64,000 nucleotides of DNA from Minisyncoccota bacterium (GCA_041651395.1 JBAZJI010000001.1:182533-246532); one strand, 5' to 3'. Numbered from the stretch's first letter, positions 4,156 through 25,180 are shown. Numbers and translations are program-made. Notes: generated by a model from the sequence alone, not told the origin.

Positions 4156-7100
4156 ATGTCCCAATATAAAGTTTTTTGTAAAGCCATTTTCACGGTTTTC
4201 TGCGTTGTGATGGTTTTGGCATTTGCCGGTATCGCTAATGCCTTTACCCAGCAATCAACATCGCAAGTGAAATTCAGCAATATTAGCGTTTCTGGCGGTG
4301 GCGGGCAAATATTTATTTACGATAATAATAAATATGATCCGCAGACTGTTTCTGCCGATATTCGCAATACGCCGCTTAAGCCCTGCCTTGATACGAGGCA
4401 GCTTGGCAGTGGCGGGCTGAAGATTTCCTGGAATTTATCCGCCGCTAAACCGGTAGGCTTTGATCATTGGTATGTCCGCTATGCCTGCGCCAGCACGCCG
4501 GCTATTGCAGCTGATACCAATACTATCGGGCGGGCATATTCTGATACTATTACTTGGAGTAGCCCAGCTTTATCTGCGGGACAATATTGCAAGATTTGGG
4601 CCTATGCCATGAAGGGCAGTAATTCTAATGAAGGTCTAAATATTGGCTTGGGAGGGGCTAACACCAGCCCGATTCAAGCTTGTTCTTTGAAGCCCTCAAT
4701 TTCTATTTTAGAGGGCAAGACCCTGAGCGTGTCCTCAATTTCTATCACTGTCCGCTATAACGACACAGGGGACAATTCTGATAGAGGACAAATTTATGCT
4801 TACGTCTATGACTCTCTTTGCACAAAATTAATCGGTTATGCCGGACCTTCGACCGTAAGTAAGAATGGGACAATTACTTTGGTTAAGGGTTCTCTGGATG
4901 CTAACACGACTTATTGCGTGAAGCCTTACGCAATTTCTGATGACAATGTCAGGGGATTTGGGGCTACCCAAATGAAAATTACCACTGGTGCCAGCTCTCC
5001 TAAGCCTGCGGAAGATTTTTCTAATAATTTCAAAATTTGTCGAACAAGCGATACGGACAAGTGCAGCGATTTTACTACTCAAAGTCCTCTGACCTTACTG
5101 GCCTGTAATTCTTACGTTGCCGGTTTAGGTATCGCAAAATTTAACACTTGCTATCTTGTCAGTGACACAAATAGTGTTTTAGCGTGTAATGCGGCTTGCT
5201 CTAAAGCTTCCGGAGAGGCTTCTGAAGAGCTTTCTTATTGCGATACGGCCTTCAAATGTGTTGGCGGAAAAATGACCAAAACGGAATGCAAACTCAAAAA
5301 CGGTAATAAAGATTGTTGGACCGGGCTTTATTGCGGCGGGCAGTGGTATAATGCCGATTCTAAATGTATCCCCACGACCGCAGCCTTATTAATAAATCCT
5401 TATATTCCGGAAACAACTGATTTCAAATGTGTTTCCGAGACACTAAGTTCTAAAGTAGAAACCGCGCTTTTCGCCAAGTTGCTTTCGACTGGCGGGGCGG
5501 CCAGCGCCAATGTGTTTTTTGATGTGTATGATAAAAGCGCGAAATGGGTTGCCAGCCAGAGTTTTTCAGGAAAGGCCAGCGGTAGTGAGATGAGCTACAA
5601 TCCTTTACTCGAGCAAGGGACTGAATATCGCTTCAAGGCTTCGGCCTATACTTCTGGCAATTCCACCTCCGTTTCTGTTTTATTTACGACGCCTTATTGC
5701 ACAACGCCTGAGCCCTTGGAGGAACTTTCATATTGTGATGGTTTAGTTTGCCGAGGAGTAAAAACAACCAAGACCAAATGCCGCACCGAATTAAATAAGG
5801 GTTTGGACTGCCGCGCCGGGCTTTATTGCGGCGGGACAGCAAGCAATCCGGACCAGACTTGCAAAGCCGGTGCGCCGGCGGATTATAGTTTGCTGCTTTC
5901 TGTGCCCGAGGTGACCGTCAAAGATTGCAGTGCTGCCGGCTCTAAAGCGGATATTTCTGTGATTATGATGCCCAGCCTTGGCAGTAATAACAGCGGCAAT
6001 ATTCTAGTTGAACAGCTTGATGCCAATGGCTCGGTGGTGACCAGTAAGACGATTGCAAGCGTGCGCAGCCTGGAGAATTATTACTGGAATTTTTCTTTAA
6101 GCCCCAAACAGGCCGCAAAGGTTCGGGCGACCTTGTATGTAGTGGGCGGTAAAACTATTCAGACCAAGGATGTGGTCGTAAAGTGCGCCGAGGAACCAGT
6201 GAGTGTTTTTTCTTATTGTGAAGCCAAAACTTGCGTGGCCCGCAAAATGACCGAATCGGCTTGCCGGGCAGCTAATGGCGGCAAGGATTGCTACGTCAAT
6301 GCTTATTGCGGTGGGAAGATAAATAATCCCGATGCTAATTGTTTGGGTCTTGACCAAAATAAGATTGAAATTGTTTTACCTAGCCAGTTTGATCAGATTT
6401 GCGCTGGCGATACCATTATCCGCGCACCTGTGAAAATTAGAATTATTTCCACTTTTGGCGGAGTAATCGGCACAGCGACCGTGAAGGTATTAAATAGTTT
6501 TGGCACGGAGATACTTTCCCAAAAATATACTGATGCTAAAGCCGGGAGTGCCTATGGCAATGAAGTGATATTCCAGCCAAACCAAAAATATAAAGTGGAA
6601 GCCAGTTTAGGGACCAGTAATGCCGCGCCTTCTATTGTTTCTGCCGAATTCATTGCCAAGAGCTGCGCCACCCAGACCGATGAAGTCAAAACGAGATCAT
6701 TTTGCTCCGGTATTGTTTGCCGGACGGTGAAAGAAACTGCCGCAGAATGTAAAGCGGAAAATAACGGCAACGCCTGTTTTGAGGTTCCTTATTGCGGTGG
6801 AACTATTTCTGACTACGGCGACAGTAAGTGCACCTCCATAGACACTTCTAAGGAGCGCTCTTATTGCTCTGCCGGGAAGTGCACTACTATAAAAACCACG
6901 GCCGCTGATTGCAAAGCGCGCAATAATGGCAACGCATGTTTTGAGGTGCCATATTGCGGCGGGCTTTGGTATAACGGCGATTCCAAATGCCAACAATCCA
7001 GTTGCAGTAAAGAGAGTTTAAGAAGCTTATCTTCGGAACTTCGAAGCGTTTATGAAAATGCCGGCGGATATAAAAAATATTGCTACAAGGGGGTAACATT

Positions 7101-10100
7101 GAAAGTCGGTTTGTCATTATACGGCGCGATACAGTGCCCGAATTTGTACATGCCGTATGTGGAACAGGATGTGTATCTTTCGAATACATCTTTAGATTTA
7201 GCTTGGCGGCTCGCCGCGACCACTGAGCAGGAGGCTGTAAATAATATCCAAGGATATATCGATAATAATATTGCGAGGCTGACTAAAGATTGCGAATGCT
7301 ATAAAGGTATTATTGTCAGTCGATTGATGGAAACTGCGCCGGCTGGCGGAACAGTTGATTTCCCTTATTCGGCGAGATTAGTCGTGGATACAACTTCTGG
7401 CCGATATTTTAATGATATAACCGGGTGTGATGAATCATCAAAGACTGGCGGTGAATTTTGCGTTGGCGGAAACACTATCGAAGATGTAAAAAATAATGCA
7501 AGAAGATATATTGATAACCATCCAAATGAGTTTACTAAAACCCAATGTATCTCTACCGATACTATCAAGGAGCGTTCTTATTGTTCTGGCAACTCTTGCA
7601 TAACTATCCGCAGTACGGCTACCGCCTGCCGTGAGAAGAATAATTGGCAGGATTGTTTTGAGGTGCCATATTGCGGCGGGCTTTGGTATAACGGCGATCA
7701 AAAATGCGCTGCCCTCGATCCTGTGCAGGAGCGCTCTTATTGCCTTGGCGCAACTTGCAAAACCGTGAAGACTACGGCCGCTAATTGCAAAGCCATGAAT
7801 AATGGAACGGATTGTTTTGCTCTACCATATTGCGGCGGCACAATCTCTGATTATGGCGATAGCAAATGCGGCGCGTTAAAGCAGCTGACGATTACCAACC
7901 CAACAGCTTCTTATTGGAAACTTAACGATAACATCGATTTCACTTGGATTAATGGCAAGCCGGGAGAAACAGTTTACATTTCCCGTTGGCTTAATTATGG
8001 CAGCAATAGTTTAGCGCTTTGCGCCGGGCGCAATGATGCCAATGGCTCGGGCTCTTGCCGTTGGACGGTGAATGCGCAGCTTGGCAAACATACTATTTGG
8101 GCTAAAGCTGCCAGCAGCCAAAGGGACTTTGATACAAAAGTTGAAATTGAGGTAATCGAACACTTGCCTGAAAGCAGCCTTTCCTTGAAAAATAATTATT
8201 TCAGCTCCAATGTTTGGGATGGGCCTCTTCAGCGCAAACAGGTAGCCGGGTTCAAAGTGACCGCCCAAGAATCTACCCAGAATCTCACGAGATTTAATTT
8301 GGATTTTTCCGGAAAGATTTGGGAGAACTTTGCCATCCTTGATGTTTATGACGCCACAATGGGGACTTCAATATTTTCCAAGAGTATTATTGCCTATGAT
8401 TTTATCCAGAGTGGTTCATATTGGAGGATAAATATAGAACCGTTCAGATTGCAAGTTCCTTTGGAGGCCAATTATCCGCACGAATTGCAGGTTTTCCTGA
8501 CAAGCCGCGACGGTCAACTTTCTACCGTCAATTATCAGATATTTGTTAATAAGAATGCGGCTCGCGCCACGGGTGCTAATGGTTTGAGTTATTATGCGCC
8601 TGATAAAGATGCGGAAGTTTCAAATTTCTTCCGAATCGCTCCGCAGCCGCCTAAATATTTTGCCTGTTCCAATGCTCTTTGCCAGATTGTAAAAAATCCT
8701 TTAACCGGCAAAGAAGTGCAAAGTGAAGCGGAATGCCAAATTGCCACGAATTTTGCCAAGACTTGTTACTTAAATGACAGCACTTGCCAAAATATTTGCA
8801 AGTCAGTTTGTGTCAAAGATGGTTTTGCCTACAAGGATCGCGGAGATATTTGCTGCGCCACTGATGGTTACAAAGAAATCGATTCTTCCGTTTTGAAAAA
8901 TGACGGTAGCTGCACGGCTGGCAATCCTAACGTGAAAATTTGCTCTAAATGCGGCAATGGTTCTTGCGACTCAATGGAAAATAAATGTAACTGTTCGCAA
9001 GATTGTGGCGCCTTATGCAACAAGGTTAATCAGAATGCGGTGGATGCCACTCTTTGTTGCCCGGGTTTGACTTGGCTTTCTAACCAATATCGCCTTGGCC
9101 GCGATGGGGGTTGTGTAAACAGCGGCTTTACCAATGGTATTTGTGTTAATACCAAATGCGGAGACGCTAAATGCGAAGGATATGAAGATAAATGCAACTG
9201 CCCAGTTGATTGTAAAGAAGTTTTGGGTTGCAAAGCAGCCAACCAGAATGCCGATTCCCCCGGCTTGTGCTGCCAAAATCTTGATTGGCTTTCCAATAAA
9301 TATCGCCTCTCCAGTAATGCGAGCTGTGCGGACAGCGGCTTTATCAATGGTATTTGTGTAACCACTAAATGTGGCGATACCAAATGCGAAGGATATGAAG
9401 ATAAGTGCAACTGCCCGCAAGATTGCAGTGGTTCGGTTATTCCCGGAACTTGTGTTGCCGAGGGTAAAGTGATTTATCCAGATGGCAGCGCGTGCTGCTC
9501 GGGTTTAACAAAAATTACCGGCCAAAATGTCGGTTATGACGGCGTAACTTGTGTAGATGTATATAGCAGCGGCATGGGTTTCTGCTCTAAATGCGGAGAT
9601 GGCAAATGCGAGAATCCGGAAAATAAATGCAACTGCCCGATTGATTGCGCTTGCGGCAATGGGAGATGCGACGGCAATGAAAATTACCAAACTTGTCCGC
9701 AGGATTGCGAAAAGCCGACTGAGGAAAAATATTGTTATAAGGGAATGTATATTTATTTCTCCAATTATCCTAATCCCAAAGTTAACAACGCAAAATACTG
9801 GCTTTCCAATTGGGATTTTGGTGGCGACTTAAAAGGTTTTAGCGGTTCTGTTGAAACGGCCAAAGCCGCGGCAGAAATGTATGTGGCTTCGCTCTGCGAT
9901 GGCACTAATGCTAAGAGCTATAATTGCACTCAGTGCGAGCGCACCGACCTTATTCCCGAGGTCATGGAAAAAATCTGTTTCAATAACAAGACATATTACT
10001 ACCGATCCAATAAACCCAATGCGGAAAGCAAGACTTTATTCTGGGTGAAAATAATTTTAGGCGGAGAATTAAAAACAATAGGTCATGATAGCGAGAGCCA

Positions 10101-12570
10101 GATGATTGCGTTCCTTAAAGGTGTTATGCCTTCGGCGCAGCTCAAATTTGCCGAACCTTGCACCGGGACAGAGGAGAAAGCTGATTATAATTATTGCGAC
10201 AAATCCAGCCCTGCTAAATGCCAACAAGAAGATGCCACGACTTTAACCCAATGCGAAACAAAATATGGCAAGGGTAATTGCTTTAAGGCTGACCCGACTT
10301 GTGCCGGCAAATGTGCCAAGATGGGGGCTAGTTGCCGCAAATGTGTGCACGGCATGTGTGCTTATTATGACCCGGCGGGTAATCCCAATACGGTGAATAA
10401 TTCCAAATGGTACATTGCCAATTATAGGCTTAGTGGCACGGCTGTTCCGATTGGTGAAGATACGGAAATGGCGATTGTCGCCCGCATCGATTTCCTCTGG
10501 AATGGGGTAACCAAGAATGATTTTAATTTCGCGCAATGCACTGAAACTCAAGACTTGGAAGTTGATTGCTATAAGAGTATTTCTATCCGATATGCCGCGC
10601 AAGGCAATCCTAAAGTGTTGGGCCAAAAATATTACATCAAAGTTACGGAAAAAGATGGCAATGTTTTCTGGTTTGGCTCTAGTGGCAGCATTAAAAACGA
10701 TGACCAAAATGCCAACATCGCTTATTTGAGGAGCCTTATTGATATCTATACAAATATAACGCCCGATTATGTTAAGGAATGTTTTACTACTCCCAAACCG
10801 GCCGGAGTGAAAAATCCGACTCCCAAAGCGGCCGGCAGCCTCGCCCCCAAGGGCGCCCCGGCCGATGACCCTTATTATAGAGGTGAGTGGCAGTATTGTT
10901 ACCCTGACGGGAAGAACTTGAATTCCGATTGTCGGAAAATGTTTTATTGCGATTTGCGCAATGCCTGTTCTGGCCAAAATTGTAATGTAACTGAAACTTC
11001 CCGCTATTATTACAAGCTCACTTCTTGCCAAGACGGTTTGGCTTATCAGTCTGCCTTGAAGGGCAAGACTACTGGATATTGTTATAACACCAGGCAAGAG
11101 GCTGAGAGCGCTTGTAAGAGATATTTTTATTGCGCTTCGGGTAATGGCACGGCCACCAATGTTTTACTGACTAAAGCCGGCAAAGCCTATACCGATGTTT
11201 ATGAATGTACGAGAAACCTCAAGGTTGATGAGTCCGGCTCCGGCCCGATTGGGCAGTGCTACGATAGCGAGCAGGAAGCCAAAGACCACTGCAGCCGTTG
11301 GTATTATTGCCCGGCCGATCCAGCCAAAAAAGGCTGCTCGCCTTCTAATACTTATGCCGACGAGGCAGCTTGTATGGCGGGTGTGATAAAAAATGCCCCC
11401 AAGGCTTTGCCTAAGTGCTACAAGGATCAAGAAACGTGCAATCAGGCTTGCCAGTCAAATGTTTTGTGGACTGCTTATAATGATCCAAAAGAGGGGCTAA
11501 TTTGCGACCAAGTTAAAGAGAGAGATCGCAATGGCGCTATTAGGCAATTTTATGGGAAGGTTGATGATGCGATTTCTGAATGCCGCCAATATTTAGATAC
11601 CAATAATCGCAAAGATACCAATTTGGATTGCTATAAAACTTTTTCGGAATGTGACGAGGCTATCAGTGGTAAGAGCCGCATGCGCGTCTGCCTAAAATCC
11701 GGGGATGCCAAATGTGCCGCTTTGCCGAGTAAATACGAAAATACTCAGGCCGGATGCGATAAATTTTTAAGCGATAATAAAGGGTTGGTTGGTTTGAATA
11801 AATGTTATGATTCGCTTTATTCAGCCACTTGCGACAGTGATTGTAAAAATGCCGGCTCCTCGCAATTCAAGGGCGCTTTCTATATCAAACCCGATGCGGC
11901 GGCCGGGAAAAATGGCGGCTGTTTGGCCTTGAGCGGATTTGAAAACGGCAAGCTAGCCTGCGAGAACGAAATTTCCCGCGCTTGGGATACGCAGGTTAAT
12001 AAGACTTGTTATCTTGATACCGCCGATTGCAATTCCAATTTCCCCAAAGGCGGTAGGGAGGCTGTACCTAATGTTTCCAAGGTTATGAATAGCGGGCTGT
12101 ATAAGTTTTATTATTACAACAAGACCATTGAATCCTGCGTGCTAAGCCAACGATATTTTTCTACCCTAAGGGAATGCAAGGATTTTTATTCTAAGATGAG
12201 CGTGGAAGCTTTGCCTGATTGCTTTAGTTGGCTTGCTGAGTGTCAGGCCAAGGGTAACCGCTATGCGTTTTTTGTCCGCGAGGGTTTACAAGGTATTTAT
12301 AAGATGACTACGGAAAGATATGCCTCTCCCTCGGCTTGCAGACAAAATGTGGCCAAATATTATTCGCCGCTTAAAGCTTATTCGGTTTGTTATACGAGTA
12401 TCGCCGCAGCCTCAACTGATAAGGAAAAGGAAAAACAGAAACTAAACTTTTATTATTTGAATAATTCGACCTGCCGGTATGCGGGAAAGTTTCTGACGCA
12501 AAAAGCTTGCGAATATTCAACTAAGCAAAGATGTTTCATCAGTTCCCGTTGTGACAATAAAGTGATTTGA
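4156..12570 (+). CDS. giant secreted Cys-rich modular surface protein (2804 aa)
   Basis: Single uninterrupted ORF opening with signal peptide MSQYKVFCKAIFTVFCVVMVLAFAGIANA. It holds 7 copies of a six-Cys ~48-aa module (…SYCxxxxCxxxKTTxxxCKAxNNGxxCFEVPYCGG…DSKC). It also has repeated CGDGKCExxENKCNCPxDC modules and FN3-like TxYCVKxYAxS signatures. Confidence 0.8.
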   Translation: MSQYKVFCKAIFTVFCVVMVLAFAGIANAFTQQSTSQVKFSNISVSGGGGQIFIYDNNKYDPQTVSADIRNTPLKPCLDTRQLGSGGLKISWNLSAAKPVGFDHWYVRYACASTPAIAADTNTIGRAYSDTITWSSPALSAGQYCKIWAYAMKGSNSNEGLNIGLGGANTSPIQACSLKPSISILEGKTLSVSSISITVRYNDTGDNSDRGQIYAYVYDSLCTKLIGYAGPSTVSKNGTITLVKGSLDANTTYCVKPYAISDDNVRGFGATQMKITTGASSPKPAEDFSNNFKICRTSDTDKCSDFTTQSPLTLLACNSYVAGLGIAKFNTCYLVSDTNSVLACNAACSKASGEASEELSYCDTAFKCVGGKMTKTECKLKNGNKDCWTGLYCGGQWYNADSKCIPTTAALLINPYIPETTDFKCVSETLSSKVETALFAKLLSTGGAASANVFFDVYDKSAKWVASQSFSGKASGSEMSYNPLLEQGTEYRFKASAYTSGNSTSVSVLFTTPYCTTPEPLEELSYCDGLVCRGVKTTKTKCRTELNKGLDCRAGLYCGGTASNPDQTCKAGAPADYSLLLSVPEVTVKDCSAAGSKADISVIMMPSLGSNNSGNILVEQLDANGSVVTSKTIASVRSLENYYWNFSLSPKQAAKVRATLYVVGGKTIQTKDVVVKCAEEPVSVFSYCEAKTCVARKMTESACRAANGGKDCYVNAYCGGKINNPDANCLGLDQNKIEIVLPSQFDQICAGDTIIRAPVKIRIISTFGGVIGTATVKVLNSFGTEILSQKYTDAKAGSAYGNEVIFQPNQKYKVEASLGTSNAAPSIVSAEFIAKSCATQTDEVKTRSFCSGIVCRTVKETAAECKAENNGNACFEVPYCGGTISDYGDSKCTSIDTSKERSYCSAGKCTTIKTTAADCKARNNGNACFEVPYCGGLWYNGDSKCQQSSCSKESLRSLSSELRSVYENAGGYKKYCYKGVTLKVGLSLYGAIQCPNLYMPYVEQDVYLSNTSLDLAWRLAATTEQEAVNNIQGYIDNNIARLTKDCECYKGIIVSRLMETAPAGGTVDFPYSARLVVDTTSGRYFNDITGCDESSKTGGEFCVGGNTIEDVKNNARRYIDNHPNEFTKTQCISTDTIKERSYCSGNSCITIRSTATACREKNNWQDCFEVPYCGGLWYNGDQKCAALDPVQERSYCLGATCKTVKTTAANCKAMNNGTDCFALPYCGGTISDYGDSKCGALKQLTITNPTASYWKLNDNIDFTWINGKPGETVYISRWLNYGSNSLALCAGRNDANGSGSCRWTVNAQLGKHTIWAKAASSQRDFDTKVEIEVIEHLPESSLSLKNNYFSSNVWDGPLQRKQVAGFKVTAQESTQNLTRFNLDFSGKIWENFAILDVYDATMGTSIFSKSIIAYDFIQSGSYWRINIEPFRLQVPLEANYPHELQVFLTSRDGQLSTVNYQIFVNKNAARATGANGLSYYAPDKDAEVSNFFRIAPQPPKYFACSNALCQIVKNPLTGKEVQSEAECQIATNFAKTCYLNDSTCQNICKSVCVKDGFAYKDRGDICCATDGYKEIDSSVLKNDGSCTAGNPNVKICSKCGNGSCDSMENKCNCSQDCGALCNKVNQNAVDATLCCPGLTWLSNQYRLGRDGGCVNSGFTNGICVNTKCGDAKCEGYEDKCNCPVDCKEVLGCKAANQNADSPGLCCQNLDWLSNKYRLSSNASCADSGFINGICVTTKCGDTKCEGYEDKCNCPQDCSGSVIPGTCVAEGKVIYPDGSACCSGLTKITGQNVGYDGVTCVDVYSSGMGFCSKCGDGKCENPENKCNCPIDCACGNGRCDGNENYQTCPQDCEKPTEEKYCYKGMYIYFSNYPNPKVNNAKYWLSNWDFGGDLKGFSGSVETAKAAAEMYVASLCDGTNAKSYNCTQCERTDLIPEVMEKICFNNKTYYYRSNKPNAESKTLFWVKIILGGELKTIGHDSESQMIAFLKGVMPSAQLKFAEPCTGTEEKADYNYCDKSSPAKCQQEDATTLTQCETKYGKGNCFKADPTCAGKCAKMGASCRKCVHGMCAYYDPAGNPNTVNNSKWYIANYRLSGTAVPIGEDTEMAIVARIDFLWNGVTKNDFNFAQCTETQDLEVDCYKSISIRYAAQGNPKVLGQKYYIKVTEKDGNVFWFGSSGSIKNDDQNANIAYLRSLIDIYTNITPDYVKECFTTPKPAGVKNPTPKAAGSLAPKGAPADDPYYRGEWQYCYPDGKNLNSDCRKMFYCDLRNACSGQNCNVTETSRYYYKLTSCQDGLAYQSALKGKTTGYCYNTRQEAESACKRYFYCASGNGTATNVLLTKAGKAYTDVYECTRNLKVDESGSGPIGQCYDSEQEAKDHCSRWYYCPADPAKKGCSPSNTYADEAACMAGVIKNAPKALPKCYKDQETCNQACQSNVLWTAYNDPKEGLICDQVKERDRNGAIRQFYGKVDDAISECRQYLDTNNRKDTNLDCYKTFSECDEAISGKSRMRVCLKSGDAKCAALPSKYENTQAGCDKFLSDNKGLVGLNKCYDSLYSATCDSDCKNAGSSQFKGAFYIKPDAAAGKNGGCLALSGFENGKLACENEISRAWDTQVNKTCYLDTADCNSNFPKGGREAVPNVSKVMNSGLYKFYYYNKTIESCVLSQRYFSTLRECKDFYSKMSVEALPDCFSWLAECQAKGNRYAFFVREGLQGIYKMTTERYASPSACRQNVAKYYSPLKAYSVCYTSIAAASTDKEKEKQKLNFYYLNNSTCRYAGKFLTQKACEYSTKQRCFISSRCDNKVI
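5224..7870 (+). repeat. array of seven six-cysteine ~48-aa modules inside the 2804-aa gene, including a near-identical 45-bp DNA repeat (6937-6981 vs 7655-7699)
   Basis: Protein-level repeats EELSYCDTAFKC..., KERSYCSAGKC..., QERSYCLGATC... read directly; the DNA string tgttttgaggtgccatattgcggcgggctttggtataacggcgat occurs twice. Confidence 0.7.
8941..9712 (+). repeat. tandem CGxGxC-ExxENKCNCPxDC modules with LCCxxLxWLSNxYRL spacers inside the 2804-aa gene
   Basis: Repeated CGNGSCDSMENKCNCSQDC / CGDAKCEGYEDKCNCPVDC / CGDTKCEGYEDKCNCPQDC / CGDGKCENPENKCNCPIDC / CGNGRCDGNENYQTCPQDC read in the translation. Confidence 0.65.
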
Positions 12571-12579
12571 TTTTTCTTC

Positions 12580-12606
12580 CGCGCCTGATTTTCGGGCGCG
12601 GGCTGA
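12580..12606 (+). terminator. hairpin terminator candidate between the two giant genes
   Basis: ccgcgcc-tgattttcg-ggcgcgg stem-loop immediately after the stop at 12570. The T-run is weak. Confidence 0.35.
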
Positions 12607-12632
12607 AAAACCAAATATTTTTCAAAATAAAT

Positions 12633-15600
12633 ATGCAAAAAAAATTCATTATCAGTGCGGTAGCGGTTGTTTTGGGGCTTTTGGCTATAGCGATAACGCC
12701 ATTATTTGCCCAGACAATCGAGAATTTAACGGCCGAACAGAAGGCGATATTTTTGCAAGTTTTAGCTGACGAAATTGCTATTCGAAAAGATATGGCCGGC
12801 CCGCAAGTTGCCGGGGCTTATGCTACGCCCGATGCGGCTTACGTGCCGCAGGCCAAAACCTTACTTTTTGTTAAGCCGAGGGTTTTGGGTGTCGTGGCTT
12901 TGTCGGGGAGTTTAACTTCCCGCTGTGGCGATGGTATTTGCGGCTCAGGGGAATATTATTCCAATTGTCCGAGTGATTGCGGCAAGGGGGCCACGTTGCC
13001 GGGTTATGGCGGCAATTTGACTGGTGGCTATAATCCTACCGGAAATCTTAACAGTGGCTCCTTGATTCAAAATCCCTGTAATTATAATTTTCAATGCGAG
13101 CCATTGCGCGGCGAAACTACTCTTAATTGCGCTTCGGATTGCAAAACCAGCGCTATCACTTATCCGGGAACGGTTGGCACGGGTGCAACAAATCTTGGTG
13201 GTGGTTTAATTTCCGGCGGGGCGAATCCCTGTAATTATAATAATTTGTGCGAGCCATTGCGCGGCGAAACTACTCTTAATTGTTTTTCTGATTGTAAATC
13301 TAGTTCTATTGGGACAGTGAATAATAATCCGCCATATCCGGGCTGGCTGAGGTGTGAGGTTTGTGGAAAGTGGTACAACCCCACAACCGGAAGATGTCCG
13401 GAAATATGCAATGAGACTGCCTCGGGAAGCGGCGAGGATTATACTAAGCAATCAGCTCCGATCACTTTGCCTCCGGAAGTAAAAGAGGGCAAAAATATTT
13501 TACGTGGCAGCGTTTCGGAAATTGTTGCGGGAGGCGAGCCGGGATTTATTGTTTATGATCCTAGCCAACCGCAAACCCGTGGTTCCCAAATCGGGGGAGC
13601 TGGTGGGGTACAAATCGGGGGTGTTCAAAGCGGGCAAACCAACGTTGGCTTTGGCTCTCAGGCCGGTGGCTTACCCGGATCAATAAGAATTAATGTTTCT
13701 GGATTCGTTTCCGCCAGTTATGACAAAACGACAAAAATATTTACGGCAACTTACGAAGATCCTACGCTTTTGCCCGGGAAGACGCGCGCTTATCGTGCCG
13801 CCATCAGGGTAAAGTCGGCTAGCTTATCGGGCGGTTATGCTTATATTGAGGCGCAAAACGAGCAATATATTTACGGGCAGGCTAAGGTTTTCAAAGCGGG
13901 TGAATGCCCTTGTCCCGAGACCGATGAATGGGTTTGTTACGATGTTTTTAGCTACAATACGACAACCAAGGTGGTGGCTACCTCTACGGCTGAGTTCAAA
14001 AATCCTTGTATTGCGGCTTGCGAAATTGGTAAAGTCCGCAAGGATAACCCGGCTACCAATTATAATTTTAAGAAGAACGGCAAATGCCAAACGAGCGATA
14101 CTATCCGCGGCAAAGATGTGACGGCGCCATTTAAGATTTCTACCGTTGGTCCGGCTGAAGTTACGGAGATTAAGCCGGGAGAAATGGGTTATGACCAAAA
14201 ACAAAAAAGGTTTAGGGTCAAGATTGCAATGAAGGTAGAGGATTTCGGTTCAATGCAGGCTATTCGCTTGCTGTCCAGTCCTTATCAATATAATAAGACC
14301 AAGAATCCCACCGGCGCTTTAGCTTTAGGCGAGGCTAAAAATATTTCCGCGAGCGCGCCGATTAATTCACAAGTGCAGATTTTTGATGCGAATAAAAATA
14401 TTCCCGGAACTTGGTTTATTAAGCCCGGCGATAATCAGAACCAAATAAGTTTTGAGGCGATTATTTCCGAGAATGGAGAACATTGCTTTATCGCGCGAGC
14501 TTATGCTATGCGAGATTATAAACCCGGTGATCAGTACCTTTCTAATACTGCTTATGCCGAACAATATTTAGTTAATGCCGATAATGAAGTTTGCGTGAAA
14601 GTAGAGGGCCTTGCCCAACAGGTGACTAAGGATTGTAAAACGATTAACGGCAAGGAAATTTGCATTAATGTAACTAATCCGTGCGTTGGCAATAATTGCA
14701 TTAATGTCGGCGAAGATTCGGTAATTACAGCTACTACGAGCCGACCGTTTGAAGACTTATCAATCGTGCAAGTGGCATCGCCAGAAGTTACAACCCTTGA
14801 AGCGGTTAACATTACGACTAATTCTATCACCTTAAGAGGAAGGTTAACCAAGCTGGGTGGCTCTCCGCCATGGGGCGATGATTCGCGATATGCCAAGCGC
14901 GAGACCTATGTGAGTTTTGGAGGGTCAAGCATTAAGGAAACTCCTAGCCAAAAAATGGCCACTGTCGGCGATTTTGAATATACTGTTAAGGAATTAAAAC
15001 CCGGAACGGAGTATTGCTATAATGCCATTGCTTGGCTGCAAAAAGCCGGCGCAACAACTCAGCCGACTGAATATGGCTTTATAGCTAGCGGAATAACCCT
15101 CGCCAAAGAGAAGGCTGCGTATGGCAAAAGCATTTGCGTAAAGACACAATTTGGTGATGCTTTGGAAAAAGCGGAAAGTTCAGAAAATCCGGAATTGGAA
15201 CTAGAAAAAATGGGTTATAAGACGAATTTAGACGAATTCGGAGTAAATTGGGCCAGTGCTTATAAGAATGTTGTCCGACCATTTACAATTACAGCTTCTT
15301 TCTTCTCCACTTCGATAAAACTCGATAGTGATACGATGTATGGCATGATGCACAAGACTGATTTAGAAAAAGAATCAATCGCTATTCCGGTTGTCGGCTT
15401 TGCCTTCCAGAGGGGCTCAACTGCGGCCAGCGGCCCATACGCGGGCGGGGCTATTTCTTTGTCTGGTGCTCCTGTGCAGCAAAGCGGCAAAACGTATTTT
15501 GTGATTGCCGGCAAGGGTATTGCTTTGGGTAAAGATGACTATACCTTCAATTTCAAAATGCCTGACATTTTGGCCGGCATGAGTTTTAATTATTATCCAT

Positions 15601-16976
15601 TCGCTATTTATGATGGCAAGATTTATTCCGCAAGTATGCCGGCTAAGATTTCTGCCGCGGCAGATAAAACTTATATCAACCCAGATATCAATGCCTTGGA
15701 AAATGGAGAATTAAAGCGCGGGTGGCAAAAGGGTTATTATAAAGCTGAGTTGCGCGGCGAAGTTCTTAAAATCGGCAGCGGCGCACAAGCAGCCAGTGGG
15801 GTTACGGTTGGATTCTCTATTATTTCTTCCGATGATAATTTAATCAGCAAGACGCATTCGGGATATGTGCAAGGAAGTAAGAGATTCGATTATCCAGGAG
15901 ATTTATCGTACGAATATGGCCAGATAAGGAGCGGATATACTTATTGCTATAAATTGGCTGCCGGCCTCTCGAATAGCTCCATGCAATATTCGGCTAAGGA
16001 GATCTGTTTTACTGCTCCAGTAGAAGATGATTGGAAATTAGATGTTTATACTGCGCCAACTTCCACGGCTTGGAAAAATCAAAGCGAACAATCTTACAGT
16101 GAGATTTGCGCCAAATGTGCCAATATCACTACCGCACCCCGCCCGCCCAATTCGTCTTTTACGTCTAGTTTTGGAATACGAACTGCGGTTTGCGCCAGCG
16201 ACAATAAGACTTACGAAAAAGAGTGTTTCCAATATTATTGCACGAAGGTCGGTTTAAGATTGAAGAGCTATGGTGCTTGCCAAACAACGCCTGTAGTCAC
16301 TATTAAAACCGGAACAGTGGCCAGCGGTATCTTGGCGTATAATAAGGCGATAGTGGCCAGAGTTAATAAGATTCCCGGTTCGGCTACACTTAGCACCAGC
16401 GACACGGCCAATGCAAACATTAAAGTTTTCATCCAAGCTGTGGGTGGGAGTGCCTATATTAAGACAAGCGGCGCATTCGTAGTTGGACTTTACGAAACAG
16501 CTAAGGGGCGCTTAGGGACTATCCCTCCGGATAAAATTAAATATAGTTGCGGCAGTGAAAGGGTAGGGTATTCTTATAAGATTTCTGCTATTGGTGGCAA
16601 TGAATGTGATTTGATTGTAAATTTTGAGCCCATTTATATGTCTTCAGCTGTCGGAAAATATTATGTGAGGCTGGAGAGTATTTTGTGGACGCAAACGGAA
16701 AATGGTGCAACAAAAGTTTCCTCTATTGTGGCCACTAGCGGAGATTATTTCTCGACTACTCCTGTAGATTTGATTTATCGCAAAGGCATTGCCGCGGGAA
16801 CGGGTAAACAATGTGTTTGCACTGCGCAATATCAGCCGGTTTGCGCTGTACCACCCGGATTTACTCAGCCGCAAATTTATCCAAATCTTTGTTATGCCCA
16901 GTGCGACAATGCTACGGCCAAAACAGAGTATCAAGTGATAGGCGGGAAGTGTGTTTACGTGAACTATAATCGCTAA
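12633..16976 (+). CDS. giant secreted protein (about 1447 aa) with CGDGxC…NCPxDC modules, FN3-like signatures and Kazal-type inhibitor-like domains
   Basis: Start taken at ATG 12633 (MQKKFIISAVAVVLGLLAIAITPLFAQ signal peptide); the tracker start 12567 overlaps the upstream gene and terminator. Kazal-like: AVCASDNKTYEKECFQYYCTKVGLRLKSYGAC and CVCTAQYQPVCAV…LCYAQCDNATAKTEYQVIGGKC. Cys modules: RCGDGICGSGEYYSNCPSDC, NPCNYNFQCEPLRGETTLNCASDC (twice). Confidence 0.75.
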   Translation: MQKKFIISAVAVVLGLLAIAITPLFAQTIENLTAEQKAIFLQVLADEIAIRKDMAGPQVAGAYATPDAAYVPQAKTLLFVKPRVLGVVALSGSLTSRCGDGICGSGEYYSNCPSDCGKGATLPGYGGNLTGGYNPTGNLNSGSLIQNPCNYNFQCEPLRGETTLNCASDCKTSAITYPGTVGTGATNLGGGLISGGANPCNYNNLCEPLRGETTLNCFSDCKSSSIGTVNNNPPYPGWLRCEVCGKWYNPTTGRCPEICNETASGSGEDYTKQSAPITLPPEVKEGKNILRGSVSEIVAGGEPGFIVYDPSQPQTRGSQIGGAGGVQIGGVQSGQTNVGFGSQAGGLPGSIRINVSGFVSASYDKTTKIFTATYEDPTLLPGKTRAYRAAIRVKSASLSGGYAYIEAQNEQYIYGQAKVFKAGECPCPETDEWVCYDVFSYNTTTKVVATSTAEFKNPCIAACEIGKVRKDNPATNYNFKKNGKCQTSDTIRGKDVTAPFKISTVGPAEVTEIKPGEMGYDQKQKRFRVKIAMKVEDFGSMQAIRLLSSPYQYNKTKNPTGALALGEAKNISASAPINSQVQIFDANKNIPGTWFIKPGDNQNQISFEAIISENGEHCFIARAYAMRDYKPGDQYLSNTAYAEQYLVNADNEVCVKVEGLAQQVTKDCKTINGKEICINVTNPCVGNNCINVGEDSVITATTSRPFEDLSIVQVASPEVTTLEAVNITTNSITLRGRLTKLGGSPPWGDDSRYAKRETYVSFGGSSIKETPSQKMATVGDFEYTVKELKPGTEYCYNAIAWLQKAGATTQPTEYGFIASGITLAKEKAAYGKSICVKTQFGDALEKAESSENPELELEKMGYKTNLDEFGVNWASAYKNVVRPFTITASFFSTSIKLDSDTMYGMMHKTDLEKESIAIPVVGFAFQRGSTAASGPYAGGAISLSGAPVQQSGKTYFVIAGKGIALGKDDYTFNFKMPDILAGMSFNYYPFAIYDGKIYSASMPAKISAAADKTYINPDINALENGELKRGWQKGYYKAELRGEVLKIGSGAQAASGVTVGFSIISSDDNLISKTHSGYVQGSKRFDYPGDLSYEYGQIRSGYTYCYKLAAGLSNSSMQYSAKEICFTAPVEDDWKLDVYTAPTSTAWKNQSEQSYSEICAKCANITTAPRPPNSSFTSSFGIRTAVCASDNKTYEKECFQYYCTKVGLRLKSYGACQTTPVVTIKTGTVASGILAYNKAIVARVNKIPGSATLSTSDTANANIKVFIQAVGGSAYIKTSGAFVVGLYETAKGRLGTIPPDKIKYSCGSERVGYSYKISAIGGNECDLIVNFEPIYMSSAVGKYYVRLESILWTQTENGATKVSSIVATSGDYFSTTPVDLIYRKGIAAGTGKQCVCTAQYQPVCAVPPGFTQPQIYPNLCYAQCDNATAKTEYQVIGGKCVYVNYNR

Positions 16977-20533: not shown

Positions 20534-21613
20534 ATGATGAAGATTGAGTTCCCGGTTTTCAAAACTAGAGTCCAAGGGGTTGATAGAAAGTTCGACCTTA
20601 CGACCGTAGCGGGCCGCAGAGAATATTTTCAGGCCAAAGCCGGATTAGAGATAGCCAAGATAAAGGATTATTTGGATAAGGGCGGCACTTTTGTTGCGTA
20701 TTTATTGGGTAAGAAGAATTCCGGTAAAGGAACTTATTCTAAGCTTTTTGCTGAGGCTATCCAAACCGATAGGGTCGCACATATTTCTATTGGCGATCTC
20801 GTCCGTTCGGTCAACGAAGAGGCGAAAGACCCTGCTAAGAAAAGAGAATTAATTGCTTGGTTAGAGAAAAATTATCGCGGTTATAGCGATCCGGAAGAAG
20901 GTATTAATATTTTGCTCTCTCGTGACGTTTCTAAGCTTTTGCCTACGGAACTCATTTTGGCTTTGACTAAGCGCGAAATTGCCAAGCACCCGCGCAAAGC
21001 TATTTTTTTAGATGGTTTTCCAAGGCAATTAGACCAAATTTCTTACTCCTTATACTTCCGCGACCTGATCGACTATAGGCAAGACCCGGACTTTTTCGTT
21101 TTAATAGATGTTTCCGCTTCGATTATTGATGAGCGCATTAAATATCGGCGCATTTGCCCGGCTTGCAAAACCCCGCGCAACCTTAAGCTTTTAAGGACCT
21201 CTAAAGTTCAATTTAATAAGAACAATAAAGAGTATGAGCTTATTTGCGACAATCCCGATTGTAGTGGTGGCAATCCAGTCATGGTGCAGAAAGAAGGGGA
21301 TAGCTTAGGCATTGAAGCTATTCGTGACCGGATTGAGGCTGATGATACCTTAGTAGAAAAAGCTTTTGGTCTTTATGGTATACCAAAAGTTTTGTTGAGA
21401 AATTCGGTGCCCTTGGATGTAGTTAGGGATATGGTTGATGATTACGAGCTCACGCCCGAGTATGTTTATGAAACCCAAGGAGACGGTTCGGTAAAAGTTA
21501 CGGAAAAACCTTGGACTATAATTGATGATCGGGGAGTGGTTTCTAATTCCTTGATGCCCGCCCCGGTAGCCCTTTCCCTTATTAAGCAGATGTCAGACGT
21601 GTTGGGATTATAA
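20534..21613 (+). CDS. adenylate kinase-family NMP kinase paralog with N-terminal extension
   Basis: P-loop GKKNSGKGTYSKLF, HISIGDLVR (NMP-binding), FLDGFPRQLDQ, and a Cys4 lid (RICPACKTP…CDNPDCSG). A second, more canonical adk is at 44310. Confidence 0.55.
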   Translation: MMKIEFPVFKTRVQGVDRKFDLTTVAGRREYFQAKAGLEIAKIKDYLDKGGTFVAYLLGKKNSGKGTYSKLFAEAIQTDRVAHISIGDLVRSVNEEAKDPAKKRELIAWLEKNYRGYSDPEEGINILLSRDVSKLLPTELILALTKREIAKHPRKAIFLDGFPRQLDQISYSLYFRDLIDYRQDPDFFVLIDVSASIIDERIKYRRICPACKTPRNLKLLRTSKVQFNKNNKEYELICDNPDCSGGNPVMVQKEGDSLGIEAIRDRIEADDTLVEKAFGLYGIPKVLLRNSVPLDVVRDMVDDYELTPEYVYETQGDGSVKVTEKPWTIIDDRGVVSNSLMPAPVALSLIKQMSDVLGL

Positions 21614-21703: not shown

Positions 21704-22081
21704 TCTTGACGCTCGGGCTTTATTATTGAAATGGCAGCGTAATTATTTTTTTCAAAGCAATGCTGCAAAAACCTTTTGCGGGAGTAGTTAGTGCGAATTA
21801 GATTTTATTAAATATGAATAATAAAAGAAGCCGCTAAAAGCGGCTTATGAGGGAGACATCAAAGATGTTTTGTGGTGGGGCCCGGCGAAATTGGTTACAT
21901 ATAAGGAGGTTCAAGCATTTTGAAAATTATTCAGGCCGGGCCCGAGGTGAAAAATGTAGGATCGTCTACCTACGGCATTATCTTTAGGGTGTTTATGGGT
22001 AAAAGTGCTGGAGGAGCAATGGTAAGATTGATCCCAAATAATAATATCATCTAATCTCTTTTAGTCAAATAAAGATAAATA

Positions 22082-22109
22082 AAAGCGCGCTCTTGGGTAG
22101 AGCGCTTTT
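22082..22109. terminator. bidirectional terminator-like hairpin inside the ORF-free region
   Basis: aaagcgcgctct-tgggt-agagcgcttt, with A-run upstream and T-run downstream. Confidence 0.4.
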
Positions 22110-22683
22110 GAATGAATAATCTTGGCATTGTCCCATAAGGTGTGGGGTTTGGTAGAGCGGCTGAATACATAATGCCCAGGATGTGAAAGTTTATGGCATT
22201 ATTTTTAACGGGTACTGTCACCTGAATTTGGCTGTAAGCCAATATAATCCATCAGCTTGGTTGCGATCTTACAAGCCTTTTTTGGATTTGTTTATTCTTG
22301 GCCGCTTGCCCGTGCATCAACCACTTAAAATAGAAAATCATTTTTTTGACCGTCGCATTTTTGTTATCAGGGTTTATCCCTACTCCTAACCATTTTCCTC
22401 CTTTGTCTTTGCATTGGAGAGAATTCCGCGCACGTGGCCGGATGATGGCTTGGGGGAGTCCTCGCATTCCTTTGACTGCGGGATTTGGATTTCCCTAAAA
22501 CAACCTTAAAAAATCATTTTGGACCCGCTCTTATAAAGAGCATTGCACCTCCTCGAAATTTTCCATCTGGGCGTGGGATGACTGCTAAGATATATAGGCG
22601 TATTTTAAGGGGCTAGGTCTCCTGAGCGCGCATGCGTTCAGTAACAGTATATTATTTAAGAGAGAGGTATTTGTCAATATATA

Positions 22684-22727
22684 TAAAAAAGGGCGCAAAA
22701 GCCCTTAAAAAACGAAAGGCGCCTTTG
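22684..22727 (-). terminator. two tandem hairpins with T-runs on the minus strand (aagggc-gcaaaa-gccctt; aaaggcgccttt)
   Basis: Read directly. On the minus strand each GC hairpin is followed by TTTTTT, implying a minus-strand transcript ending here that starts somewhere in 22.74-23.77 kb. Confidence 0.4.
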
Positions 22728-23770
22728 GGGTAAGGTCGCCTGTGTGGGATTTTCCATGTCTCTTGCCCCTTGCATTCGGATTCTTGTCAGGAGTCTTTGC
22801 GACTGATGTTGACGAAAATCTGATGTTTCAAAAAATACTGGCAATGTCTTGTACGGGTCGCTTTGGAGCCGTACTTGCGCTATCCCTCTTGTTGGCAATA
22901 AGCCAAATGCCTCCGTCTTGGAACTCTTGGCAGTGGAAGAATGGGTCTCACGGGACCGATTCCAGTGCTATTCCTCGAACGCTAAGGCCTTTTATAGATA
23001 GGGCGTGGACACATTGTTCTCCAGCTGTTTGTTGGACGATGTCTGCCAAGCAAACAAATTAAGCGAGATAAACCGGATCATTTGTCCGGGCGGGGTATCA
23101 ACAGAACGGCTTTTTGCATGGTTCATAACTCCCTGCAAATAAGTTTTCTGAAAGATTCCCCCTGATCCCATTTGAACTCATTGATCTTAAAGATCGATTT
23201 TTTGGCCTATCATGGTGAATAATTCACCCTTCTACCATCTTTTGATGGTGACGCCTTTCCCATTAGCCTTCTTGATTAATCCGGCTAATGGCGGCTTGCC
23301 TGCAGTGATTTCTTTTGGCACTGCAGCGCGGTTTAGCGTGTTGGTGGATGGCTTGGTCAAAGTAATCCGGGCAGTCCCGGTTATTTGGCTTGGGCCATTT
23401 TTAGGCAAAAATCAAGGTCCGTCTCGAATATGGTTCATGGCTATTGTTCTCTCTGCGCTTTAGCGCCTTGGGTGAAGACTTGCAACCGCAACCGGTTGCT
23501 GGTCAAAAACAAATACCATGAGCGGGTGGGAGAGTGGAAAATATATTAATATGAATGAGCATTTATGCCGGGTTAGGCCCCTTTCCGATTTCAATCGTCG
23601 CCGTAAATATTACTGGAGCAATCTCTGTTGCTGAATTTGGGGCCTTTTCCCTTGTAAACCAACCAGGACCTTGTCCTTGATTGGTTTTTAATGATAGCAT
23701 ACTTTATATATTTTGTCAAGAGGGTTATTTTACAACAAAAAAACGCCCATTTCTGAGCGCTTTCCGTTTG

Positions 23771-23841
23771 TCGGGCTGCCGGGAATTGAACCCGGATTTT
23801 ACCCACCCCAAGGGCATGTACTGCCGTTGTACTACAGCCCG
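23771..23841 (-). tRNA. tRNA-Pro (anticodon GGG)
   Basis: Reverse complement folds as acceptor CGGGCTG / CAGCCCG, D-arm GTAC-AACGGCA-GTAC, anticodon arm TGCCC-TTGGGGT-GGGTA (anticodon GGG, G37), T-arm CCGGG-TTCAATT-CCCGG. 71 nt, CCA not encoded. Confidence 0.85.
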
Positions 23842-24127: not shown

Positions 24128-24235
24128 AGTTTCAGTAATTATTTTGACTTCTAAATAATAGTATAATTTTTCATTTTTGGCAAGAGGATGAAGGGTTTGC
24201 GATATTTTGGCGCTGTTTGGTATAATGAGTCTGAT

Positions 24236-25180
24236 ATGAAAAAGATTTTATTTGCGCTTGTTATATTTTCTATTTTAATCGCGCCAAAGGTTTTGGCCTA
24301 CCAAGAATGGGTTGATAGCGGCTATAGGCAATCATCATATTCGGGGTTGGATTGCGGTAACTCGCCATTCACTTGTTATATTTCCGAGGATTACGTGGAG
24401 GCCAAGTATAATCAAGATATGGCCCAATATTACGCAGCCCAAAATACGGCCGGAGAAACCAATGATTATTCTATTATAAGGCAGCTAAGCCTTCCTGTTT
24501 ATGCAGGGGAAATGGTTGACGGGCGCCTTTATTGCTATTTTGGTTATGTTGAAAATCCCCAGACTCAGCGTTGCGAGAGAATAAGCGTGCCGGAAAATGC
24601 GGCACTTAGCGAGAGTGGAAAGGGGTGGAGCTGCTTATTCGGGTTTAAGAAAGTTTATGGCCAAGATGTTTGCGAATTGGATTCCGTCCCTTCTTTGGCC
24701 AAGGTTAAACTAGACAACCATACCAATGATTGGGGTTGCGTTTTTGGCTTCAAAAAGGCCTTCGGCGGTTGTGAGAGATTGATTTTCCCAGCGCATGGGC
24801 ATGCAGATTCTGAGGCTAAAGATGGTTGGGATTGCGATAGAGGATACGAGCGAACCGAAGATGGGGACTTTTGCCAGAAGATTGAAATTCCGGCTAATGC
24901 CAAACTCAGCAAGGCCGGCAAATCCTGGGTTTGCAATTCCGGCTATGCTGTACAGTATTTGGCCAATGATCAAAGAATTTGTGTTAAGGCCGGAACAGTA
25001 AAATCTCCCCTCAGAGCAGTGGCCGGGGTCAAAAAACTAAGCTGTAAATTTGGCTATGAGGATTCGGGCGGGGAGTGCACGAAAATTTTAATTCCGCTTA
25101 ATGGCCAGCTGGCCGCTGACGGCAAATCCTGGGTTTGTAAGTCGGGGTACCGAAAGGTTGAAGGCCGATGTCTAAGATAA
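24236..25180 (+). CDS. secreted protein with about six ~38-aa Cys-containing repeats (GxxWxCxxGY/F…C…IPANAxLSxxG)
   Basis: Start taken at ATG 24236 (MKKILFALVIFSILIAPKVLA signal peptide) rather than the tracker start 24188. Repeats read directly. TGgTATAAT lies at 24218-24226, only 10 nt upstream. Confidence 0.55.
   Translation: MKKILFALVIFSILIAPKVLAYQEWVDSGYRQSSYSGLDCGNSPFTCYISEDYVEAKYNQDMAQYYAAQNTAGETNDYSIIRQLSLPVYAGEMVDGRLYCYFGYVENPQTQRCERISVPENAALSESGKGWSCLFGFKKVYGQDVCELDSVPSLAKVKLDNHTNDWGCVFGFKKAFGGCERLIFPAHGHADSEAKDGWDCDRGYERTEDGDFCQKIEIPANAKLSKAGKSWVCNSGYAVQYLANDQRICVKAGTVKSPLRAVAGVKKLSCKFGYEDSGGECTKILIPLNGQLAADGKSWVCKSGYRKVEGRCLR

Follow-up and report, generated by a model that had tools for sequence, protein, structure and literature searches.

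An undescribed six-cysteine module, present in seven copies in a giant and predicted exported protein of a Minisyncoccota bacterium, bears the signature of gene conversion

The main finding of this work is a six-cysteine module of about 48 residues, here called the YCGG module after its most recognizable motif, which occurs seven times in one giant protein encoded on a stretch of 64,000 nucleotides from a Minisyncoccota bacterium (GCA_041651395.1, JBAZJI010000001.1:182533-246532; this whole stretch is hereafter the window, and positions are counted from its first letter). The gene is a single open reading frame (ORF) on the plus strand (4156-12570) that encodes 2,804 amino acids, a Cys-rich mosaic with predicted export, deposited as MFA5165842.1 under the name 'hypothetical protein WC449_00875'. 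The module belongs to no described domain family, and its copies carry the marks of gene conversion and differ in number between related genomes. We consider it reasonably probable that the YCGG module is a disulfide-stapled, structural or adhesive extracellular element of a giant surface protein of the Candidate Phyla Radiation (CPR), and that this protein evolves by intragenic recombination.

Seven modules, designated a to e, g and h, were counted in the window, a regular-expression scan and a profile hidden Markov model (HMM) agreeing on exactly this number. The original prediction, a reading made from the DNA sequence alone, was right about these seven copies, which also recur at matching positions in two independent assemblies. 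Translation of the 64-kb window in all six frames yielded no ORF with an eighth copy; the next best domain scored below 0 bits with the profile HMM. All copies lie on the plus strand: module a at 5221-5367 (residues 356-404; first to sixth cysteine, C1-C6, at residues 362-404, nt 5239-5367), module b at 5716-5862 (residues 521-569; C1-C6 at 527-569, nt 5734-5862), module c at 6199-6342 (residues 682-729; C1-C6 at 688-729, nt 6217-6342), module d at 6685-6831 (residues 844-892; C1-C6 at 850-892, nt 6703-6831) with module e in tandem at 6847-6990 (residues 898-945; C1-C6 at 904-945, nt 6865-6990), and module g at 7564-7707 (residues 1137-1184; C1-C6 at 1143-1184, nt 7582-7707) with module h in tandem at 7723-7869 (residues 1190-1238; C1-C6 at 1196-1238, nt 7741-7869). 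The copies are either dispersed, with periods of about 480-495 nt, or paired, with periods of 159-162 nt, and no array was reported by Tandem Repeats Finder.

Alignment of the copies gave the spacing C-x4(5)-C-x9-C-x8(9)-C-x4-Y-C-G-G-x8(9)-C. The six-cysteine YCGG pattern proposed at first is therefore correct, but three of its gaps were off by one. In 16/16 modules aligned from three genomes, three residues are as invariant as the six cysteines, namely a Ser two positions ahead of C1, the second Gly of the GG turn and an Asn that follows the helix; nearly invariant are the Tyr before C1, a Thr before the helix, the Tyr before C5 and the Asp before C6. The strand and helix faces vary among copies. 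The conserved residues other than cysteine (the Ser and Tyr before C1, the Thr, an Asn-Gly, the Gly-Gly turn and the Asp before C6) may accordingly be scaffold positions. The loop between C5 and C6 is of a W-Y type (LWYNGD) in 3/7 window copies, and TISDYGD or TASNPD in the remainder.

The giant-protein gene is real and under strong purifying selection. A whole-protein search returned two relatives only, P0001 (2,774 residues, about 90-91% identity to the window protein, locus L001) and P0002 (3,312 residues, 69% identity over 35% of the query). Against the orthologue P0001, about 91% identical, the ratio of nonsynonymous to synonymous substitution rates (dN/dS) was 0.054 for the gene at a dS of 0.40 and 0.087 for the modules, with single modules ranging from 0.03 to 0.17, and all of the alignable cysteines (173/173) were kept. 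Since the profile is specific, the modules recur in two independent assemblies and the cysteines are completely retained, the seven-module pattern is not a product of chance. The three genomes also share the surroundings of the gene, namely an SBF transporter and YceG upstream on the opposite strand and, downstream, another large secreted protein, NrdD and NrdG. In the databases, the window genome is labelled Candidatus Paceibacterota and the relative of about 91% identity 'uncultured Candidatus Saccharibacteria bacterium'. The first of these names is synonymous with the phylum Minisyncoccota, one class of which is Nanosynbacteria. If, as we assume, Nanosynbacteria corresponds to the cultured TM7 (Saccharibacteria) lineage, the two labels agree; both belong to the CPR/Patescibacteria.

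The protein contains 182 cysteines (6.5%), of which 180, an even number, are in its mature part, and very little His (0.3%). An N-terminal signal peptide or signal anchor is predicted at 4156-4242 on the plus strand (residues 1-29, ending in ...AFAGIANA before F) from the Kyte-Doolittle profile, in which residues 3-32 form the sole hydrophobic segment above threshold; the position of the cleavage is one read from the AXA motif only. Because the single hydrophobic segment is N-terminal, signal-like and ends in AXA, the protein is probably exported.

As the original prediction had supposed, the module could not be assigned to any known Cys-rich domain, and a clear Pfam or TIGRFAM match, sought as the result that would speak against this, was not obtained. 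The whole protein had no match to Pfam or NCBIfam families at E<=1 and none in PHROGs. When the 16 modules were scanned singly against Pfam at E<=10, the matches were scattered and inconsistent, each in at most 3/16 modules, with scores, where printed, of 9-13 bits against cut-offs of 24-27. Toxin_7 was touched by three of the 16 modules (best E 0.0046, printed score 12.3 bits against a cut-off of 27), Toxin_37 and CBM_1 by two each (best E for CBM_1, 0.16), and several other families by single ones. Among PDB sequences the module profile gave one match at noise level, a ZZ zinc finger (E 0.28). We also considered kinship with the other six-cysteine modules of the giant protein, of a 'hairpin-helix-CY' type (residues 292-351, 1499-1552, 2009-2056, 2381-2436 and 2507-2566), and found it credible on inspection but unsupported by hhalign (probability 0.7%); the YCGG profile weakly touches one of them (independent E 0.032).

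Searches in very large collections pointed in the same direction. The profile built from the copies, run against large protein and metagenome sets as had been suggested, recovered only the orthologue: a word-indexed search of 5.8 billion clusters returned no match, and the 16-module profile, run exhaustively with HMMER over 1.84 billion representative proteins, returned P0001 (the orthologue's cluster) alone, although a profile of 52 positions is too short to reveal distant relatives in a library of that scale. Two scans of JGI metagenome contigs added no further family members, and the sole match in a GTDB genome scan was the metagenome-assembled genome (MAG) that carries P0001. As far as can be seen, the YCGG module is confined to a single narrow lineage and, within it, to one orthologous gene.

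The fold of the module and the nature of its partner were approached by structure prediction. AlphaFold modelled the YCGG module alone with a mean predicted local distance difference test score (pLDDT) of 83.5, as a beta-hairpin (strands 3-9 and 12-18), a helix (20-26) and a C-terminal loop, and Foldseek found no structural match for this model, the best values being E 2.7 in PDB and E 0.6 in BFVD. A segment of about 110 residues precedes each of modules b, c and d, and these three segments are immunoglobulin (Ig)-like beta-sandwich spacers on the plus strand: spacer 1 at 5368-5715 (residues 405-520), closed by a conserved Cys pair; spacer 2 at 5863-6198 (residues 570-681), placed by homology to the other spacer units; and spacer 3 at 6343-6684 (residues 730-843), recognized with AlphaFold and Foldseek. 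Spacers 1 and 3 match each other in BLASTP (E 1e-4). Ten units of spacer plus module, each of about 165 residues, could be aligned (three from the window and the others from the two relatives), and all of them keep one invariant Cys near the start and one near the end of the spacer. AlphaFold2 modelled the 166-residue unit 3 at pLDDT 82 with eight beta strands followed by the hairpin and helix of the module, and its spacer matched Ig-like domains of GH2 enzymes, CARDB, an ApaG-type protein and GbpA in PDB, with E down to 5e-5 (Foldseek). The seven-fold repeat is therefore in part a three-fold repeat of an Ig-like sandwich plus module, of about 165 residues: module a stands before the three units, the tandem pair d-e follows, and the second tandem pair g-h comes next.

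The history of the copies differs from the one proposed at first, in which the last four were nearly identical and an exact 45-bp repeat was the trace of a recent intragenic duplication. The repeat does exist, and its first copy lies where it had been placed, at 6937-6981 (plus strand), where it encodes CFEVPYCGGLWYNGD; the second copy is at 7654-7698 on the same strand, not at 7655-7699, and starts 717 nt (239 codons, in frame) downstream of the first. The last four copies in fact share 48-63% of their residues and 56-72% of their nucleotides, and only the 45-nt tract is identical. In codon alignments of modules e and g with their counterparts at L001, 25/25 informative sites of the 5' two-thirds group the orthologues (e with e, g with g), whereas over the 3' third no difference separates e from g within either genome (45 nt in the window, 54 nt in L001), even though the two genomes differ from each other at five of these sites. 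An identity run of such length was obtained in 0/200,000 permutations of the differences. Because the 5' sites track the orthologues and the 3' third matches within but not between genomes, the 45-nt identity reflects gene conversion, through which two old paralogues have evolved in concert, and not recent duplication. In L001, modules f and h are likewise identical at 144/147 positions.

The number and setting of the modules also change between genomes. The window protein has seven YCGG modules, P0001 eight and P0002 six, one of the six being degenerate, with a shortened C5-C6 loop and all six cysteines kept; the claim that the repeats are a substrate for recombination, with copy-number variation as its outcome, agrees with these counts. 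The window and P0001 are collinear except for one block, in which 6988-7554 of the window replaces 12831-13309 of L001 (479 nt): collinear homology ends at 6987 and restarts at 7555, and the protein alignment breaks likewise. The window side of this exchange is an in-frame cassette of 567 nt on the plus strand (6988-7554, residues ~946-1135), found only in this genome, that contains two Cys-bounded alpha/beta modules starting with CYKG and has no homologue in the window, the related loci or the protein database; the L001 side comprises the end of module e, a further tandem copy (module f, the third in its run) and one Ig-like domain. The left breakpoint of the cassette (6987/6988) directly follows the 45-nt tract. 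The perfect 45-nt direct repeat, whose copies lie in frame 717 nt apart, is a plausible substrate for a RecA-type deletion, which would leave a triple formed from d-e and g-h, like the tandem triple seen in P0002.

A Cys-bounded module of about 60 residues that begins with C-[YH]-[KR]-G and continues with a helix and then a Cys at its end was noticed by eye in other places as well. At least four copies were seen in the giant protein at residues 1858-2210, in addition to the two in the cassette, and the module also appears at 61134-61307, the C-terminus of a secreted protein of 1,516 residues (56760-61310).

Taken together, these results can be explained by a small extracellular mini-domain of about 48 residues that would fold independently, in which the beta-hairpin would bear C1 and C2, the short helix C3, and the C-terminal loop would be held by C4-C6. 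Most likely, three disulfides would staple the module, which could then serve as a rigid, protease-resistant 'bead' or as a binding surface within a giant Sec-exported protein, where it is coupled to an Ig-like beta-sandwich or strung together in short tandem runs. Disulfide bonding is suggested because each domain has an even number of cysteines (six per module, two per spacer), cysteine conservation is complete and His is nearly absent. The explanation as a whole also draws on the signal peptide, on the concentration of conserved residues at scaffold-like positions, on the Ig-like partner, on the other large secreted orphan proteins encoded in the window and on published accounts of surface proteins in CPR genomes. 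The whole protein would most likely act in attachment to another cell or surface, and its architecture would change through intragenic homologous recombination, that is, by conversion, by gain and loss of modules and by replacement of cassettes at module borders, as argued for by the counts of seven, eight and six, the cassette breakpoint right after the conversion tract and the conversion signature itself. Several observations weigh against this explanation. Neither an LPXTG motif nor a C-terminal transmembrane segment or anchor was found in a scan of the whole protein; the 64-kb window was found to encode no oxidoreductase of the Dsb or VKOR type; and an anaerobic ribonucleotide reductase (NrdD, NrdG) is present, so that an oxidising exterior is not guaranteed. 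The alignment behind the AlphaFold models is shallow, made mostly of paralogous copies from a three-sequence family, and the adhesive or structural role is proposed by analogy with other CPR proteins.

A more ambitious version of the same idea, which we regard as rather unlikely, is that a lineage-restricted, disulfide-rich fold with no relatives in sequence or structure would form the host-recognition surface of an epibiont's giant adhesin and would be varied by conversion, by deletion between the 45-nt repeats and by cassette swaps. If so, the built-in variation of this surface could influence host range or help in the evasion of phages or immunity. Giant, unannotated Cys-rich surface proteins are among the few candidates for host recognition and attachment by ultra-small CPR bacteria, and almost no domains have been described in them.

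Another possibility is that the module binds carbohydrate as a lectin-like unit, much as CBM1 of fungi or hevein of plants does; the glycan of a host wall would then be held by the aromatic residues between C5 and C6 (YCGG-LWYNGD). An epibiont plausibly needs to bind the wall of its host, the C5-GG-x8-C6 stretch with its Tyr and Trp has the Cys spacing of the first half of the CBM1 consensus, and two modules gave the weak CBM_1 matches. Aromatic-C-G motifs are found in hevein-like peptides too (PMC8512870). These CBM_1 matches are, however, far below the gathering thresholds, and none of them came from the eight queried copies of the window, those with LWYNGD included. Moreover, Chitin_bind_1 matched neither the giant protein nor the modules, the adjacent CC and the SXXG and GXXXX-aromatic loops that define hevein are absent from the module sequence, and the W-Y loop is limited to the minority of copies given above. 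We therefore hold a lectin function to be unlikely.

The six cysteines could instead bind a metal, either Zn or an Fe-S cluster, making the modules metal-stabilised knuckles. The Cx4C at the hairpin turn does look like such a knuckle, the top PDB sequence match was a zinc finger, and the organism, to judge from NrdD and NrdG, is apparently anaerobic. That match is noise, however, six cysteines cannot be divided into tetrahedral sites, and both the signal peptide and the scarcity of His disfavour metal binding; the adjoining Ig-like spacers, with a single conserved Cys pair each, have the arrangement typical of a disulfide. Metal binding thus appears very improbable. We find it scarcely likely that the array serves as a protease inhibitor with several heads, or as a polyprotein from which knottin- or defensin-like peptides would be cut at the ER-S linkers, a reading to which the sporadic Toxin_7 and Toxin_37 matches and the Kazal-like Cys patterns of the neighbouring gene (Pfam Kazal_1, E 0.95) lend some colour. 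The toxin-family matches are all below cut-off and inconsistent between copies, Foldseek matched the module to no toxin or inhibitor in PDB or BFVD, and the fusion of three modules to Ig-like domains, in a chain of 2,804 residues conserved end to end, suits a structural protein better than a precursor. Finally, repeats in metagenomes are prone to misassembly and the architecture of this region differs between assemblies, but an assembly artefact or non-coding DNA is practically negligible as an explanation, since DNA identity among the window copies, the 45-nt tract apart, does not exceed 72% and leaves them too divergent for collapse or expansion, an independent MAG shows modules a-e, g and h in collinear arrangement, and the 8.4-kb ORF is intact with the dN/dS given above.

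With regard to its surroundings, the window is core chromosome, with a ribosomal protein operon and genes for EF-G, EF-Tu, SecY, AlaRS, NrdD and NrdG, and it encodes several further large signal-peptide proteins with no Pfam match passing the curated cut-offs. The downstream neighbour of the giant-protein gene (12567-16976, with a likely true start at the Met codon 12633) encodes a secreted orphan protein whose length varies from about 1,447 residues in the window to 1,267 in L001 and 521 in L002; it is this protein that has the Kazal-like patterns (C-x-C...PVC...Y-x-N-x-C-x3-C). A signal-peptide protein of 330 residues (24188-25180), conserved in relatives, contains about six short repeats of the form G-K/D-x-W-x-C-x-x-G-[FY]...C, and its sole Pfam matches, EGF_MSP1_1 and Antifungal_pept, are at or just below cut-off. 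EF-G is intact in the window (700 residues), and in the relative MAG GCA_964596325.1 (L008, 10492-12755) only a C-terminal piece of 334 residues is found, preceded by an opposite-strand ORF of 228 residues with no Pfam match; this split could reflect an insertion or an assembly problem.

A region of about 1.9 kb (21816-23724), between an adenylate-kinase-like gene (20534-21613) and tRNA-Pro (23770-23841), contains no ORF of more than 106 residues, and all six reading frames are interrupted by stops. Over 1,915 alignment columns its identity to the relative MAG is 94.9%, with differences that lack codon periodicity; the ends of the flanking genes reach 73-90%, so that the region is better conserved than its neighbours. 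Its halves fold better than shuffled sequences on both strands (minimum free energy z -3.4 to -5.6), and the substitutions lean slightly to the preservation of pairs on the plus strand. Searches for Rfam families (even at E<=1), repeats, and phage or plasmid sequences returned nothing for this region, and Logan contigs of another sample series end on either side of it. It is a candidate for a large structured non-coding RNA of no described family.

Among known extracellular modules, those of the epidermal growth factor (EGF)-like type, from eukaryotic extracellular matrix proteins, are similar in general design: they are also six-cysteine units of about 40-50 residues, used in tandem or interleaved with Ig-like or fibronectin type III (FN3)-like domains as disulfide-stapled spacers or beads. 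In EGF, however, C5 and C6 are separated by one residue, whereas in the YCGG module they are 10-11 residues apart, and the EGF fold is an all-beta, two-hairpin one, whereas the YCGG model has a helix at 20-26. The Pfam EGF models did not match, one module touching EGF_Mua-3 at E 1.2 (9.8 bits against a cut-off of 27). Hevein and CBM1 resemble the module as short disulfide-rich units in which an aromatic-C-G(G) motif is followed by an aromatic-rich loop, but the YCGG module has an N-terminal hairpin and a helix in addition. Hevein-like peptides are defined by an adjacent CC (CX8CX4CCX6C...), by SXXG in loop 3 and by GXXXX-aromatic in loop 4 (PMC8512870). Membership in that family was rejected, as no module has an adjacent CC or a Chitin_bind_1 match. 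Fungal CBM1, of about 36 residues, has four cysteines (QCGG...C...C...YxQC) against six in the module of about 48 residues; only the CGG-x8-C half is similar, and the sub-cut-off CBM_1 matches in 2/16 modules led us to reject this assignment too.

Kazal domains follow the consensus C-x(n)-C-x7-C-x6-Y-x3-C-x2,3-C-x(n)-C and carry both C4 and C5 on one helix; that of the YCGG module bears a single Cys, and no Kazal match was found on the giant protein or on the modules. The knottin or inhibitor cystine knot families (Toxin_7, Toxin_12) and the CS-alpha-beta defensins (Toxin_37) were likewise rejected, their matches being below cut-off and unaccompanied by any Foldseek match. The giant protein carries yet another Cys-rich extracellular repeat, CGDGxC...CPxDC, of the Myxococcus cysteine-rich repeat type, which differs from the YCGG module in motif and spacing. 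Five copies of it, as CGDGxC-x(5-7)-C-x-CPxDC, are found at nt 8941-9707, and repeats of this type are also present at about 12924-12983, 59106-59168 and 60114-60254, in another two of the window's large secreted proteins; despite the likeness to the Myxococcus type, they had no Pfam or NCBIfam match at E<=1.

At the level of the whole protein, the nearest counterparts have been described in CPR genomes. Peribacteria encode large (about 1,655 residues), strain-variable proteins with about 7% Cys and a signal peptide, for which a role in attachment was proposed (PMC4736985), and repeat-bearing surface proteins under diversification were reported in another CPR genome (PMC6851277). The giant protein described here shares with the Peribacteria type a length above 1,000 residues, a Cys content of about 6.5-7%, a signal peptide, the lack of annotation and a CPR genome, and also the variation between strains, in the form of seven, eight or six modules and of a 567-nt cassette in place of 479 nt. 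The Peribacteria-type proteins constitute a descriptive class and not a sequence family, the YCGG module is undescribed there, and the likeness is one of description only. To this class the present locus contributes a compact and well-bounded module of about 48 residues that is confidently modelled and has an Ig-like domain as its evident partner, as well as a clean natural case of concerted evolution and cassette exchange within a giant surface-protein gene; its value is that of a new domain definition and a testable prediction about recombination, with no new principle involved. The YCGG module is, therefore, an undescribed domain within an already recognised class of giant CPR surface proteins.

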